From the NCBI GenBank assembly GCA_965218585.1, contig CBDCLE010000025.1, positions 64,001 through 128,000 on the forward strand: a stretch of 64,000 bases of DNA, read 5' to 3'. The position numbers and the translations under genes are program-made. This DNA is from Terriglobia bacterium. Its GTDB lineage: Bacteria; Acidobacteriota; Terriglobia; 20CM-2-55-15. Positions 7,865 to 13,836 of this stretch are shown here, piece by piece. The notes under the pieces were generated by a model that saw nothing but the letters and a program-made list of their open reading frames with translations, searched no databases and was not told the origin of the DNA. How positions within the stretch are numbered: the first letter of the stretch is position 1; each line of letters starts with the position of its first letter.

Positions 7865-8887
7865 ATGAATAGACCACGCGACAGGAGTCGATCCTATGCT
7901 GTTTCGCCCGTGGAACCACATATAGAGGGACAGGAGTTTCTCGGTCCCGCGCCCGAAGGCATCGATGTCAGGTATGCCTGGCAGTTCGATGGCGGACGTG
8001 GCGAGGGTCTTGGTTTTGTCGACCTGGAGTTGGGTTGGACGCTCGACCACGAAGACCTCGTCTCGGACAAGAGACCAGTGCCCCAAGTGCTGTGCGGACA
8101 AATTGTGGACGGCGAGAGAGAACACGGAACATCCGCTCTCGGTGTTGTGGCTTCCACCAGCGAAAGGCCCGGGCACATCGGGATTGCGCCGAACGTCGAA
8201 TCCCTAAACGTCGTCTCCTACTGGCCGGACTGGGATATCGCGGATACGATCTTGATTGCCGTCAAGCACCTGGAGTTCGGGGACGTTCTGCTCTTGGAAG
8301 CGCATGTTCGTGAGGTCGGACACCCACCGGTTGAGGTCTTTCCGAATGTCTTCGATGCCATCCGGCAGGCAACGGCGAAAGGAATCACTGTCGTGGAGCC
8401 CGCAGGCAATGGTGGAATCGATCTAGACGAGTACCGAAAAGAAGGCCGGAGGACTCCCAGTCGCACAGCCGAGAGCGACTCTATGGCGATCCTGGTAGCT
8501 GCCGCGACAGCCGATGCACCTCACGCACCGATTCAGAAAAACATGCCGGATCGTGAGTGGGGCACCAATTTTGGTAGTCGGGTGGACTGCTATGCCTGGG
8601 GTGAGCGAGTGGCGACTTGTACGTCGAACTCCCTAGCTTCGAGGAAGGCGTATACCGACAGTTTCCACGGTACGTCTTCCGCGGCGGCCATCGTTGCCGG
8701 GGCAGCGTTGGTGATTCAGGGGATCGCCGAACATCGACTCGGCCGACGTTTTGGTCCGCTTGAGATTCGGTCGCTACTCAGCGATCCCAGCCTCGCGACG
8801 CCGTCAATGAACGGTCTCGAGATTGATCGAATAGGAGTGATGCCGGACTTAAGAGGAATCGTCGCCCACGAGGGCGTAAAAACTTGA
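7865..8887 (+). CDS. S8 (subtilisin-like) serine peptidase, catalytic domain only
   Basis: Triad motifs FVDLELGW (D), EHGTS (H), HGTSSAAAIVAG (S) and oxyanion AGNG; no signal peptide seen. Confidence 0.9.
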   Translation: MNRPRDRSRSYAVSPVEPHIEGQEFLGPAPEGIDVRYAWQFDGGRGEGLGFVDLELGWTLDHEDLVSDKRPVPQVLCGQIVDGEREHGTSALGVVASTSERPGHIGIAPNVESLNVVSYWPDWDIADTILIAVKHLEFGDVLLLEAHVREVGHPPVEVFPNVFDAIRQATAKGITVVEPAGNGGIDLDEYRKEGRRTPSRTAESDSMAILVAAATADAPHAPIQKNMPDREWGTNFGSRVDCYAWGERVATCTSNSLASRKAYTDSFHGTSSAAAIVAGAALVIQGIAEHRLGRRFGPLEIRSLLSDPSLATPSMNGLEIDRIGVMPDLRGIVAHEGVKT

Positions 8888-8971
8888 TAGTAGAGAACTT
8901 TGTGCAAAAAATGTGACCAGATCGATCCGAACAGGCCGATTCCCACATCATTACCATAAGGAGAAAACCAT

Positions 8972-9325
8972 ATGGCAAAGGGAAAGAATCCAGAATTGAC
9001 TGAACACGAATTTGCGGATGCACGTTTCGAGGACATGAAGGCCCTACTGAAGACCGGTGCACATCCGAAGACGCTCTCGACGCCAGCGGAAAACTTTCTG
9101 AACGGCGCTCTCAAACAGCGGTTCAGGAAAATCATCCGCAAGAGTGGGCAAGGAGCTTGGGTGAGGGACCATGTGATGGTGTCGTTGGGGGCACGCTTGA
9201 TCGGCCACATGGCTGCCGGTAAGCAAGCGTCCGGGCCGATTAGTGTAACGAACCTTAAAGAAGCCGGTAGAGAAGTGTTTGACTTCATACACATTCCCGA
9301 TGGCGATCCTGATTACGGAGATTGA
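8972..9325 (+). CDS. Hypothetical helical protein A (paralog of next gene; histone-fold-like candidate)
   Basis: Strong RBS AAGGAG; 117 aa; ungapped similarity to the next ORF. Confidence 0.75.
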   Translation: MAKGKNPELTEHEFADARFEDMKALLKTGAHPKTLSTPAENFLNGALKQRFRKIIRKSGQGAWVRDHVMVSLGARLIGHMAAGKQASGPISVTNLKEAGREVFDFIHIPDGDPDYGD

Positions 9326-9327
9326 CG

Positions 9328-11272: not shown

Positions 11273-11596
11273 ATGGGAAGATCAAGCAGATATTCACCGG
11301 AAGTTCGTGAGCGCGCAGTCCGGATGGTGTTCGAGCACCAGGCCGAGCACGAATCGCAATGGGCAGCAATGGCATCGATCGCATCGAAGATCGGATGTAC
11401 GGCCGAGACGTTGCGGAAGTGGGTGCGGCAGGCCGAACGGGACACAGGCCGACGTGCGGGCCTGACCACAGACGAGAAGCAGTGTCTGAAGGAACTGGAG
11501 CGAGAGAATCGTGAGCTGAAGCGGGCGAACGAGATCCTGAAGAAAGCATCGGCATTTTTCGCGCAGGCGGAACTCGACCGCCGAGGAAAGTGGTGA
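11273..11596 (+). CDS. IS3 transposase OrfA (HTH)
   Basis: [14 protein letters not shown]...[16 protein letters not shown]...[29 protein letters not shown]. Confidence 0.93.
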
Positions 11597-12500
11597 CCGA
11601 GCTCATCGATCGAAATCGGAGCCAATATGGGGTCGAGTCGATGTGCAGCATGCTGCACATCGCCCCGTCGACGTATTACGAGCACGCGGCACGACGACGC
11701 GATCCGGATCGATTGCCGGCGAGGACAAAGCGGGACGCTTCGCTTTGTGTAGAGATCGATCGGGTCTGGCGTGAGAACCGCCAGGTCTATGGTGCCCGGA
11801 AAGTCTGGAAGCAGCTCAACCGTGAGGGACAGCAGGTGGTTCGCTGCACCGTGGCCCGTTTGATGCGGGATATGGGCCTACAGGGTGTCGTTCGCGGCCG
11901 GAAGTTCAAGACGACAATAGCGGACGATTCTGCGCTGCGACCGCCCGATCTTGTCGATCGGGACTTCACAGCGACCCGACCGAATCAGCTATGGGTCGCG
12001 GATCTGACTTACGTGGCGACGTGGCGTGGATTCGTGTACGTCGCCTTCGTCATCGACGTGTTCTCCCGGAAGATCGTCGGCTGGAGAACGATGAACTCGC
12101 TGAAGACTGACATTGCACTGGATGCTCTGGAACAGGCGCTCTGGTCGCGCTCCGACACCAACGGTCTGATCCATCACAGCGATCGCGGGTGCAGTATCTG
12201 TCGATCCGCTACACCGAACGCCTGGCTGAGGCCGGCATCGAGTCTTCGGTGGGCAGCATCGGAGATTCCTACGACAACGCTCTCGCCGAATCCGTTATCG
12301 GACTGTACAAGACCGAAGTTATTCGACGGGAGGGACCCTGGAAGGGGCTCGATGATGTGGAGTTCGCGACGCTGGATTGGGTCTGCTGGTACAACGACAA
12401 ACGATTGCTGGAACCGATCGGAGATATCCCTCCAGCCGAGTTTGAGCAGCTGTATTATCAGAATCCGCCGTCCGGCCTCGTCGAGGCCGGACTCAACTAA
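11590..12500 (+). CDS. IS3 transposase OrfB (DDE), with an extra frameshift at ~12190
   Basis: [25 protein letters not shown] then QYLSIRY...DNALAES in a second frame; one G appears missing from GGG(G)TGCAG. Confidence 0.9.
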
Positions 12501-13836
12501 AACGGTCTCCGGGATTCCCGGGGCGGTTCACTTCTGGCCCTTGGCGAAAAGAAGAGCGAACTGCCTTTTTCGGCGGCAGATCGAAACCTATTGAAGACAA
12601 TTGCGGCTTCGGAAGCGTTAATGATCGAAAACCGGTTTGTGCGACCTGTTTCTGCTGGAGAGGCCACGTCTCACGGGTTTGGCGCCGCAGACTCGGTTGA
12701 AGAAATGCCCGTCGGCGAGGTTGCCTTCGAATGCAGGCGCTGTGGCACTTTGCAGTCGGAACCAGCGTCTACCTGCGAATGCGGCGGCACATTCGAGCCC
12801 GCCTCTGTACCCAAGGTTATTCCGGACAAGTTCGAGTTCGAACGAAGACTCGGGTCCGGCGGCATGGGAGTTGTTTACAGCGCTATCGATCTGGCGCTTG
12901 GACGGCGTGTCGCCGTCAAGACGCTACCAAGAACTTCGCCTGAGGGTGCGCTGCTGCTTCGAAATGAGGGTCTTAAAGTGGCTGCACTCGAGCACCCAAA
13001 TCTGGCCACGATATTTATGGTGGAGACATGGTTCGGCACCCCAATGCTGATCTTTGAGTTTCTGGCCGGTGGCAGTCTTTTCGACAAGCTGAAGCTCGGC
13101 AATCGCTCGATAATGGAAACGATCCGCTTGGGAATCGTCCTTGCGGACGCATTGGAACGTGTACACGCTTCGAACATGCTGCATCGGGACATCAAGCCGG
13201 GCAACATCGGATACACGGGGGATGGTATTCCGAAGCTCTTGGATTTTGGATTAGCCCAAATCCTTGAAGACCGGCGCCGGAAAGGTTTGGTCCGTTCAGT
13301 TCAGCTAGGCGATCCAGAAGCGGCCGCGAAATCGACTCTGTCTACCCAGTCGATTTCGGTGACCCTTTCCAGTGCGCCATCCTTCCGCCTGGTTGGAACT
13401 CCCGCCTATTTCTCTCCGGAAACGCTCAAGAAAAAGGCCTCCGATCACGCATCACGTGACCTGTGGGCGCTCAACATAGTGCTCTATGAGGCGTTGACGG
13501 GCAAGAATCCGGTGAGAGGTGCCACCCTGCTCGAAACATTTGAGGTGATTTCGAAAGCGAGTATTCCCGACATCCGACAATTTCTTCCGGATTGTCCCAC
13601 AAGCCTCGCGATGTTCTTCACGGAGACGTTGGCCAAGGATACGCGCCAGCGTCCTTCCAGTGCAACGGCATTGCGCGAGCGCCTGGAACAACTCGAGAAA
13701 ACCCTGCCTGAGAACGGTTTGGCTGCCAGTCAGACCTGAGGGACGTTAGTGTGGCACTAATTGTGGGACAAACGGTCGATGCTGCATCGGATCATCTGCC
13801 TAACCAACATCCTAGTAATACGTGTAGTAATGCGAG

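Follow-up and report, generated by a model that had tools for sequence, protein, structure and literature searches.

Gene content of the locus

We analysed a stretch of 64,000 nucleotides from the Terriglobia bacterium assembly GCA_965218585.1 (contig CBDCLE010000025.1, positions 64,001 to 128,000), referred to here as the window, and within it a 6.1 kb island that carries the genes of a receptor Ser/Thr kinase of the Hanks type, two small proteins and a subtilase. The island extends from 7704 to 13832 in the numbering of the window, between the stop codon of an ABC permease gene (7701) and the 3' end of a tRNA-Ser(GCT) gene, and is a strain-specific insertion in a variable hotspot. In the list of open reading frames (ORFs), its content is four genes on the forward strand (7865-13739), and the list holds no gene in the island beyond these four and an insertion sequence (IS). 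An earlier note on this DNA had described four co-oriented genes beside tRNA-Ser, coding for an S8 peptidase with its triad, two paralogs with differing tails and a kinase of about 875 aa, and its author was aware of no described system of this kind. All of these features are present where the note had placed them, and no PADLOC, Pfam or NCBIfam model covers the combination.

The first gene (7865-8887, forward strand) encodes a 340-aa peptidase of the S8 (subtilase) family, recognised by Pfam PF00082. Two genes for small proteins with a predicted histone-like fold follow on the same strand, the first for a tail-less paralog of 117 aa (8972-9325) and the second for a tailed protein of 119 aa (9385-9744). 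The rest of the array is a kinase gene in three pieces, all read on the forward strand. The 5' piece (9798-11132, closed by a TGA at 11130-11132) codes for some 8-10 hydrophobic segments, followed by the beginning of a GAF-like domain, and aligns with residues 1 to about 450 of intact homologs that are 830-1070 aa long. The middle piece (about 11133-11219) lies in a shifted frame and runs to the site of the IS; its translation matches the GAF region of the homologs. The 3' piece (12535-13739) encodes the end of the GAF-like domain, a zinc ribbon of the form CxxC...CxC and the Hanks kinase domain (Pkinase, E = 6.6e-35; PF00069, 121.2 bits against a cut-off of 31.7). The VAVK, HRDIKPGN and DFG motifs are present, and the four cysteines of the ribbon as well as the catalytic K, HRD, N and DFG residues align to columns that are invariant among the homologs. 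Together the pieces amount to about 875 aa. The GAF models find no match in the window pieces, and in the homologs they score slightly below their cut-offs (GAF_3, 25.3 against 27 bits; GAF_2, 24.3 against 28.6; GAF, 18.6 against 22.4), so that we speak of a putative GAF-like domain below the Pfam threshold.

The kinase gene is interrupted twice, once by the IS and once, beside it, by a frameshift of 1 nt near 11115-11132. When the IS and one copy of its CTTC target duplication are removed, the frame of 11133-11219 joins that of 12535 onward. The kinase gene is inactivated in this strain; the frames of the S8 gene and of both small genes are still open. Because its kinase is broken, the local copy cannot work in the way that the earlier note proposed, and its value lies mainly in pointing to a family of related loci.

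Linkage of the small gene and the kinase

With a profile of the small-protein family, we found the small gene in 12 of the 401 genomes of the window's phylum, the window's own genome included. The 12-20 kb around the 11 other loci were searched with the window proteins and with profiles. At eight of the 11 (L040-L046 and L048), a whole kinase of the same architecture, 830-1069 aa long and with a Pkinase domain and a sub-threshold GAF match, lies within a few hundred bases of the small gene. The other three loci comprise one in which the kinase is cut by the contig end (L049), one that retains a C-terminal kinase remnant of 145 aa (L039) and one that has no kinase (L047), where the small protein is also tail-less. 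In an all-against-all comparison of the ORFs, no other family was common to more than three loci, except for frames that overlap the kinase gene in another frame or on the opposite strand.

A second lineage shows the same association. Locus L050, from a metagenome-assembled genome (MAG) of a Thermoanaerobaculia bacterium, contains two tandem pairs of small gene and kinase. Among the relatives of this MAG the small gene occurs in 28 of 41 genomes, often twice at a distance of about 3.2 kb, and at each of the 12 loci that we fetched from the lineage (L167-L178) it is flanked by two kinases, one ending before it and another starting after it. Recurrent linkage of the small genes to multi-transmembrane kinases and S8 proteases had been named in the earlier note as the test of its proposal, and for the kinases the outcome is positive in both sets of loci (8/11 whole kinases and 12/12 loci of the second lineage). 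The conserved core is the kinase together with one or two small proteins.

The transmembrane/GAF region of the kinase is found in 247 of the 401 genomes at E <= 1e-10 (a count that includes the unpublished genomes G189 and G063), which makes the kinase a member of a large paralogous family. A search of genome contigs with the kinase domain returned at least 592 stretches and matched at least 579 generic kinases, and L050 is the sole full-length case among the matches listed. As a reciprocal test, we examined 20 further matches to the kinase N-terminal domain, and a small gene is adjacent in the five best-scoring ones, two of them found by the profile (E = 6.7e-8 and 1.6e-4) and three recognised by sequence and tail. 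The other 15 loci have no small gene at E <= 1. The small protein is therefore a specific partner of one kinase clade. No other Cys-tailed small ORFs were recognised beside these 15 more distant kinases, in a scan whose output is noisy.

Several observations on related loci stand beside this result. At L039 (8436-8873, genome G341), a tail-less and a tailed gene persist next to the kinase remnant, a second case in which the kinase was lost and the small genes were kept. In the L050 lineage the module is tandemly duplicated in the order small-kinase-small-kinase. The window genome has a further kinase with the same transmembrane/GAF N-terminal domain (L150, at G000:C19:105538-106536; a frame of 1315 aa, E = 1.8e-45), alongside which no small Cys-tail gene was detected. 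In the kinases of L040 and L042, both of which are beside a gene for a C39-like protein, HCD replaces HRD in the catalytic loop, and these two may be non-RD kinases. A different conserved small ORF, which ends in ...ATY(D/N)KIKD.I.ASHPKK, is found upstream of more distant kinases with the same N-terminal domain in three genomes of one genus-level group (L154, L155 and L156, at about 3460-4030) and may represent another partner family.

The small proteins and their tails

The reading frame of the second small gene in its longest form starts at 9322 and has 140 codons' worth of protein (140 aa), and the homologs P0003, P0004 and P0005 begin at the position of the GTG at 9385, which gives the 119-aa protein described above. 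The two window proteins are 27% identical over 74 residues in a pairwise comparison (E = 0.001). We also built an independent family profile of 42 members that leaves out both window proteins and the close relatives P0003 and P0005, and searched with Z = 1e6. This profile matches both the 117-aa protein (E = 4.5e-7) and the 119-aa protein (E = 3e-30), and the two are therefore paralogs. Their C-terminal tails differ, the first protein ending in ...IPDGDPDYGD with no cysteine and only the second ending in ...SPGPGSWCAPF. Neither protein matches a Pfam, NCBIfam or PADLOC model.

The family is rare. A word-indexed search of 5.8 billion proteins returned three relatives of the 119-aa protein with identities of 65-89% (P0003, 89%; P0005, 65%), and for the 117-aa protein its own cluster only. 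In 1.84 billion representative sequences, a HMMER search with a five-row profile found 44 proteins at E <= 1e-3, most of them 100-135 aa long. Metagenome contigs searched with the small-protein alignment gave 421 pattern matches, none of which was confirmed. The 46 aligned members have no recurrent Pfam family.

An AlphaFold2 (AF2) model of the 119-aa protein, calculated from the family alignment, has a mean predicted local distance difference test (pLDDT) score of 89 and a predicted TM-score (pTM) of 0.82. Its helices span residues 10-29, 36-86 and 94-108, which is an architecture of helix, loop, long helix, loop and helix, with short bridges in both loops. When the family profile is compared with PDB sequences, the top match is histone 1f1e of Methanopyrus kandleri, which aligns over helix 2, loop 2 and helix 3 (E = 8.5e-5), followed by H2B, by HMfA/B (weakly) and by some AAA+ lid regions. 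Neighbours in the ESM Atlas include histone-fold clusters at scores of 0.84-0.88, which at <=0.88 are leads only. By profile and model, the fold thus appears histone-like at a distant level of similarity, and the protein is not a proven histone. Relative to histones, helix 2 is extended by inserted residues, about 20 in number and variable among the members.

One explanation offered in the earlier note was that the small proteins are chromatin-like targets of the kinase and the protease. They would then be DNA-binding histones that these two enzymes modify. The presence of archaeal and eukaryotic histones among the top sequence and fold matches is what speaks for it. The isoelectric points of the family range from 4.5 to 10.5 with a median of 7.7, and 21 of 46 members are below 7. 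The 'RKT' motif of loop L2, with which histones contact DNA, is not conserved, and no conserved basic L2 motif was seen in the family alignment. With the residues inserted in helix 2 and the placement of the genes in multi-gene signalling loci, these properties argue against chromatin, which we consider the least likely of all the explanations weighed here.

The tail has the consensus Pro-x-Pro-Gly-x-aromatic-Cys. In the family alignment, Cys116 is kept in 43/43 sequences, Gly113 in 39/42 and an aromatic residue at 115 in 41/42; P110 is found in 31/40, and a proline follows the cysteine in 28/31. Many tails have a second cysteine a few residues upstream. Before the tail, G77 and A100 are each present in 46/46 members and W62 in 44/46, and Cys21 of helix 1 is kept in 27/44. 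Where small genes occur as tandem pairs, one is tail-less and the other tailed in four of five cases (the window, L039, L041 and L044); the pair at L046 has a different arrangement with both copies tailed. As a sign of heterodimers, this pairing is only suggestive. CaaX-like processing of the C-terminus was considered and rejected, the distance from the cysteine to the C-terminus varying from 0 to about 20 residues and being larger still at some loci.

No signal peptide or hydrophobic N-terminus was seen in the small proteins. All proteins of the module, with the exception of the transmembrane domain of the kinase, appear to be cytoplasmic.

Peptidases and regulators beside the module

The window S8 peptidase matches PF00082 over profile positions 133-269 only (40.4 bits against a cut-off of 21.8, E = 2.9e-10). 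In an alignment with seven homologs (eight sequences in all), D53, H87, N182 and S271 are invariant, and from the motifs DxE, HGT and GTS we take D53, H87 and S271 to be the catalytic triad and N182 to be the oxyanion asparagine. The protein has no signal peptide or N-terminal propeptide, and no hydrophobic N-terminus was found by hydropathy. Its only close relatives are P0050 (77% identity, 340 aa) and P0051 (67%, 344 aa). All remaining homologs are at most 52% identical, and 115 among the matches listed are 319-590 aa long, most of them above 420 aa. An extra N-terminal region is present in three of five distant homologs that were aligned and absent from the two others (346 and 356 aa). Among 41 relatives of the window genome there are four S8 homologs (37-42% identity), all within ORFs of 633-860 aa, and the two whose neighbourhoods were examined are in unrelated contexts.

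The longest contig reported for P0050 and for the small-protein homolog P0003 is in both cases 57,015 nt, and that for P0051 and P0005 is in both cases 35,416 nt. Because these lengths are identical, we infer that the S8 gene and the small gene are on the same contigs in two sister lineages, in which the peptidase seems to travel with the small gene. The S8 peptidase is outside the conserved core.

A different peptidase-like protein accompanies the module elsewhere. Directly downstream of the small gene, the loci L040, L042 and L140-L142 encode a C39-like protein of about 400 aa. Its five sequences share the invariant residues C19-G20, H113-W-V and D143, in the order found in papain-like enzymes, and judging from the motif we presume that Cys19, His113 and Asp143 are catalytic. 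The protein has no N-terminal hydrophobic segment. A comparison with PDB sequences gave nothing significant (best match 9l5u_A, E = 0.099). In the 401 genomes the C39-like family has five full-length members, and all five are directly downstream of the small gene and kinase; a sixth, partial match is in G424. The single metagenome contig that contains a C39-like gene has the same order (the end of a kinase, a small gene and the start of the C39-like gene), and the Cys motif is present in it.

The tails of the small proteins at these loci are distinctive as well. In all six C39-like loci, the tail of the partner reads Cys-Pro-x(1-6)-Gly-Gly-Gly-x-hydrophobic-Cys-(Asp-Phe or Gln), and the glycine triplet is found in none of the 18 other tabulated small-protein frames. 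Peptidases of the C39 family cut after Gly-Gly, and for this reason the pairing of a GGG tail with a C39-like protein fits that of a substrate with its enzyme. We considered a precursor of a ribosomally synthesised and post-translationally modified peptide (RiPP) and rejected it: no radical-SAM enzyme, cyclodehydratase or other modifying enzyme recurs nearby.

Regulatory genes adjoin the module at several loci. A gene for a sigma factor of the extracytoplasmic function (ECF) type is adjacent at L041, L044 and L046 (3 of the 18 tabulated loci), and also at three of the 15 more distant kinases. A regulator with Trans_reg_C and FHA domains is encoded directly upstream of the kinase at L140, L141 and L142. 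From these neighbours it is clear that several lineages have wired the module to transcription. The ECF, FHA, redoxin and O-methyltransferase genes of the related loci are all absent from the window, and no recurrent exporter was seen among the neighbours of the module.

A proposed signalling module with a trimmed partner

In our most probable reading of the locus and its relatives, a Ser/Thr kinase and a cognate small protein form a signalling module, and a peptidase trims the tail of the small protein. The mechanism is inferred, and we give the reading as a whole a probability of roughly 0.55. On this reading, the island at 7704-13832 would be a horizontally acquired and now decaying copy of a signalling module that is conserved in the window's phylum, probably Acidobacteriota. 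Conserved linkage shows the core of the module, which consists of the receptor kinase and one or two small proteins that appear cytoplasmic and histone-fold-like. The receptor combines an N-terminal multi-transmembrane sensor, a cytoplasmic GAF-like domain, a four-cysteine zinc ribbon and a C-terminal Hanks kinase domain. The small protein would be the cognate cytoplasmic regulator or substrate of this kinase, and its active form would be a homodimer or, as with histone folds, a heterodimer that pairs a tail-less with a tailed copy. A peptidase would be a facultative third part that trims the tail, the S8 enzyme serving here and in two sister lineages and the C39-like enzyme, with GGG tails, elsewhere. 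The output would pass through the ECF sigma factor or the Trans_reg_C-FHA protein where one of these is encoded beside the module.

Several results weigh against this reading. On the side of the peptidases, the window S8 protein finds no counterpart by tblastn at any of 45 related loci (0/12, 0/12 and 0/21); its link to the small gene comes from a single lineage, in which two of the three members are placed through matching longest contigs only. No recognised peptidase is present at 11 of the 18 tabulated small-gene loci. The assignment of the C39-like protein falls below thresholds, with L040 scoring 19.1 bits against 24 for Peptidase_C39_2 (E = 0.002, positions 3-143 of 143) and 18.2 against 25 for DUF3335 (E = 0.0018), and L042 reaching only E = 0.096; its AF2 model, based on a five-row alignment, has a pLDDT of 37 and is unusable. 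Four of the five genomes with the C39-like gene come from one family (f59), so that the correlation with GGG does not represent six independent events. On the side of the small protein, none of the 46 family members matches a histone family of Pfam (the clan of PF00125 and PF00808) at E <= 0.01, and a Foldseek comparison of the AF2 model with the PDB gave nothing at E <= 0.001, 1f1e being at rank 3 (TMq 0.54, E = 0.098) with AAA+ lid domains scoring alike. The family has no invariant Ser or Thr, which is a weak argument against a fixed phospho-acceptor. The description of the small proteins as histone-fold-like in the earlier note holds as far as the 1f1e profile match and the confident AF2 model go and finds no backing from Pfam or Foldseek. 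The protease as a partner fares in a similarly divided way: the S8 enzyme does not recur at the related loci, and the C39-like neighbour with its GGG tails keeps the idea of tail cutting alive.

The same facts can be read as a system of kinase and small proteins only, in which the S8 gene is a passenger of the island, the C39-like gene is unrelated, and the small protein is an adaptor or substrate that is never proteolysed. The absence of the S8 gene from all of the related loci and the many loci with no recognised peptidase fit this explanation, as does the G435 lineage, where no peptidase accompanies the conserved module. It accounts less well for the confinement of the 340-aa, propeptide-less form of S8 to three lineages that also hold the closest homologs of the small protein, and for the occurrence of the C39-like gene solely beside the module (5/5 and one metagenome contig) with GGG solely in the tails of its partners. 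We regard it as a real possibility, if one that falls well short of even odds.

Another explanation starts from the cysteines. The tail cysteine, together with the helix 1 cysteine or the second tail cysteine, might form a thiol/redox or metal sensor that modulates the kinase. The invariance of Cys116, the retention of Cys21 in more than half of the sequences and the frequent second tail cysteine agree with it, as does the four-cysteine ribbon of the kinase. Moreover, genes for DsbD-like and TlpA-like redoxins lie directly upstream, and an O-methyltransferase gene downstream, in L045, L048 and/or L050 (the redoxin genes in all three), and the redoxin neighbours point to a thiol/redox role, of which a module with a trimmed tail has no need. 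These three loci come from related lineages and share wider synteny, however, so that the linkage may be inherited gene order, and DsbD and TlpA act outside the cytoplasm, while no signal peptide is present in the small proteins. We consider the sensor an unlikely explanation, although a more probable one than chromatin.

To return to the signalling module with a trimmed partner, it could take a more specific form. Apart from the transmembrane domain of the kinase, the proteins appear cytoplasmic, and a secreted pheromone is therefore unlikely; neither a signal peptide nor an exporter was seen for a secreted peptide signal. We can instead imagine an intracellular circuit, so far undescribed, in which a histone-fold carrier presents the Cys-tail and a peptidase cuts it. 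The GAF-like domain or zinc ribbon of the kinase would then sense either the released peptide of 4-7 residues or the carrier left after trimming, and the kinase would signal to the ECF sigma factor or FHA protein. This version is speculative, and we would not expect it to prove correct. The same low expectation applies to its detail that the cut is made at Gly-Gly by the C39-like enzyme or, in the window, by the propeptide-less S8 enzyme. If it were true, peptide ligand and kinase would form a wholly intracellular system, and bacteria would be using the histone fold in a new way that does not involve chromatin.

Comparison with known systems

A full-text literature search, which is not proof of absence, did not find a published description of the pairing of this kinase with the small protein. 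The nearest functional relatives are kinase-regulator pairs of the ECF43 and EmbR/PknH types, in which the small partner and the peptidase are without a counterpart. Pairs of an ECF sigma factor and a Hanks kinase include PknT-EcfP. PknS-EcfK of Xanthomonas is described as such a pair, of the ECF43 type (PMC13147305). As in the ECF43-type pairs, the module places a transmembrane Hanks kinase beside the transcription factor that it would control, an ECF gene being present at 3 of the 18 module loci. Unlike them, the island has no sigma factor gene, the invariant partner is the small histone-fold-like protein, and the kinase domain is C-terminal, following the sensor of transmembrane segments, GAF-like domain and zinc ribbon. 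EmbR-PknH of mycobacteria consists of a winged-helix regulator with an FHA domain and a receptor Ser/Thr kinase, and the Trans_reg_C and FHA protein directly upstream of the kinase at L140-L142 resembles this arrangement. The FHA regulator is absent from the window, however, and EmbR-PknH has no equivalent of the small Cys-tail protein or of the C39-like peptidase.

Peptide-processing systems offer a second set of comparisons. Double-glycine leader peptides, as in the precursors of bacteriocins and the NHLP and Nif11 precursors, are cut by C39 peptidases. The six C39-like loci resemble them in that a C39-like protein with Cys, His and Asp is encoded beside a small protein that has, in its C-terminal region, Gly-Gly(-Gly) and then a short stretch containing cysteine. 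They differ in that the C39-like protein has no ABC exporter fusion or N-terminal transmembrane segment and no modifying enzyme is nearby, and in that the 'leader' would be a folded domain of about 105 residues and the 'core' not a variable peptide but 4-5 conserved residues. The window departs further, having an S8 peptidase instead and a tail with a single glycine. In the Phr/Rap systems, a small precursor is cut by subtilisin-family proteases, which free its C-terminal pentapeptide; the Phr precursor is secreted and about 40-60 aa long, and the receptor is a TPR protein. The window is similar in that an S8 gene and a receptor gene accompany a small protein whose short C-terminal stretch is conserved. 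It is dissimilar in that the small protein has no signal peptide and seems to stay in the cytoplasm, and in that a Hanks kinase containing a GAF-like domain serves as the receptor.

The small proteins appear to share the core of helix, loop, long helix, loop and helix with prokaryotic histones, as reflected in 1f1e and the weak HMfA/B matches, and differ from them in the lack of a Pfam histone match, a helix 2 longer by about 20 residues, a composition that is not uniformly basic and the Cys tail. A survey of prokaryotic histones distinguishes 17 categories, some of them in conserved multi-gene operons (Schwab et al. 2024, PMC11390915). Its main text is not known to name a kinase-linked category, the only 'kinase' there being a polynucleotide kinase (PMC11390915).

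The locus represents a Hanks-kinase signalling module with new partner proteins, and the pairing at the level of families is new and testable. Hanks-type kinases are numerous in soil phyla, and few of them have known partners. Here a pairing is defined between a distinctive receptor kinase and a small family without a Pfam model, with a histone-like fold and an invariant Cys tail, joined in some lineages by a dedicated peptidase. If the tail is indeed processed, kinases would be controlled by a new logic and the histone fold would have a further, new role in bacteria. The window copy is a pointer to this family and an example of a recently acquired module that is being lost again.

The island, the insertion sequence and the flanks

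The interval between the permease and tRNA-Ser genes varies within the genus. The flanks are housekeeping genes, with an ABC ATPase and permease on one side and tRNA-Ser, a 150-aa protein, galE, uxs and ugd on the other, and they are syntenic in 4/4 same-genus genomes, in which a tRNA-Ser is also found at the equivalent position. By tblastn, the 12-kb syntenic stretches of these four genomes contain none of the S8, small-protein and kinase sequences of the window, and the island is carried by one of the five genomes of the genus. In its place, the interval is almost empty in G001, holds a 442-aa protein in G002 and a 511-aa protein in G003, and in G004 contains several other ORFs and, beside the tRNA, a short frame that resembles the C-terminus of a tyrosine recombinase. 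The G+C content of the island (0.52-0.60) is similar to that of its surroundings, and neither an integrase gene nor a repeated tRNA end was seen within it. A scan for regulatory sites found three promoter-like sites against 2.7 expected and 13 terminator-like sites against 6.1 +/- 2.9 expected; no site was convincingly placed between the four genes, and we do not infer an operon.

Such a setting recalls the anti-phage or conflict systems of tRNA-linked islands, which the earlier note had mentioned; the kinase would then be a sensor or an effector, and the protease an effector. The variable hotspot at the tRNA 3' end, the presence of the island in a single genome of the genus and matches to the PADLOC kinase models of PD-T4-6 and mad6 (E down to 7e-56) are in line with it. 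The Hanks kinase domain does match the models of PD-T4-6, of MAD6 from MADS and of PglW from BREX, and in this the module resembles those systems. These PADLOC matches are confined to the generic Hanks domain, however, and NCBIfam scores are far below the cut-offs (MAD6, 102.5 against 460; PglW, 61.2 against 990). The S8 protein, the small proteins and the transmembrane part of the kinase have no PADLOC match, the partner genes of PD-T4-6, MADS and BREX type 2 are absent, and the sensor architecture is different. Unlike patchily distributed defence genes, the module is near-universal in one lineage (28/41 genomes) with conserved synteny, and transcription regulators adjoin it. A role in defence is accordingly very unlikely in our view.

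The element that splits the kinase gene is an IS of the IS3 family, 1311 bp long (11220-12530, forward strand) and flanked by a duplication of CTTC (11216-11219 and 12531-12534). All features of this family were found: transposase frames with HTH_Tnp_1, HTH_21 and rve domains (Pfam), an ALIL frameshift pseudoknot (RF01497, 11551-11667; 100.6 bits against 50), inverted repeats of the form TG...CA and the target duplication. The genome, assembled in 26 contigs, holds 17 near-identical copies, 16 of them full-length (1311-1314 nt), and two more at 80% identity, which points to a recent burst of transposition. Compared with read contigs, the window copy is without a C at 11226 and a G at 12186, and the missing G breaks its own transposase gene orfB (ORFs 11590-12594 and 12189-12500).

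The read contigs come from runs X8 and X9, which derive from one sample that is possibly the source sample, at a depth of about 3. X8 covers 7600-11245 and X9 covers 10504-11244 with no mismatch, the sole gap being the extra C at 11226 in the end of the IS. As the contigs have no gap at the kinase, the frameshift near 11115-11132 is therefore present in them too; the indel differences between assembly and reads are at 11226 and 12186, with none at the kinase frameshift. No contig bridges the insertion site without the IS, and an intact allele was neither found nor excluded. One X8 contig connects 7703 to 13833, skipping 6129 nt, with 21 foreign letters between. With a depth of 2 and 30 nt on its shorter side, this junction hints weakly that the site is empty in a co-occurring relative. 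Among the other runs, X10 and X11 cover the island in part, and X1-X7 share 0.05-0.13 of the sampled words, probably from the IS.

The tRNA-Ser gene with anticodon GCT is at 13836-13923 on the reverse strand (ARAGORN; Rfam tRNA, 55.4 bits), with its 3' end towards the island. On the opposite strand, 13837-13888 (+) gives an Rfam match to the Plastid-psbl-rps4 3'UTR RNA at 58.7 bits against a gathering score of 68, which is most likely an artefact of the tRNA sequence. Further on, a gene for a galE-like UDP-glucose 4-epimerase (14491-15467, reverse strand) is split into the overlapping ORFs 14904-15467 and 14491-14937. Its counterpart in the same-genus genome G001 is a single open frame of 323 codons, and the split gene is either a frameshift pseudogene or the result of an assembly indel.

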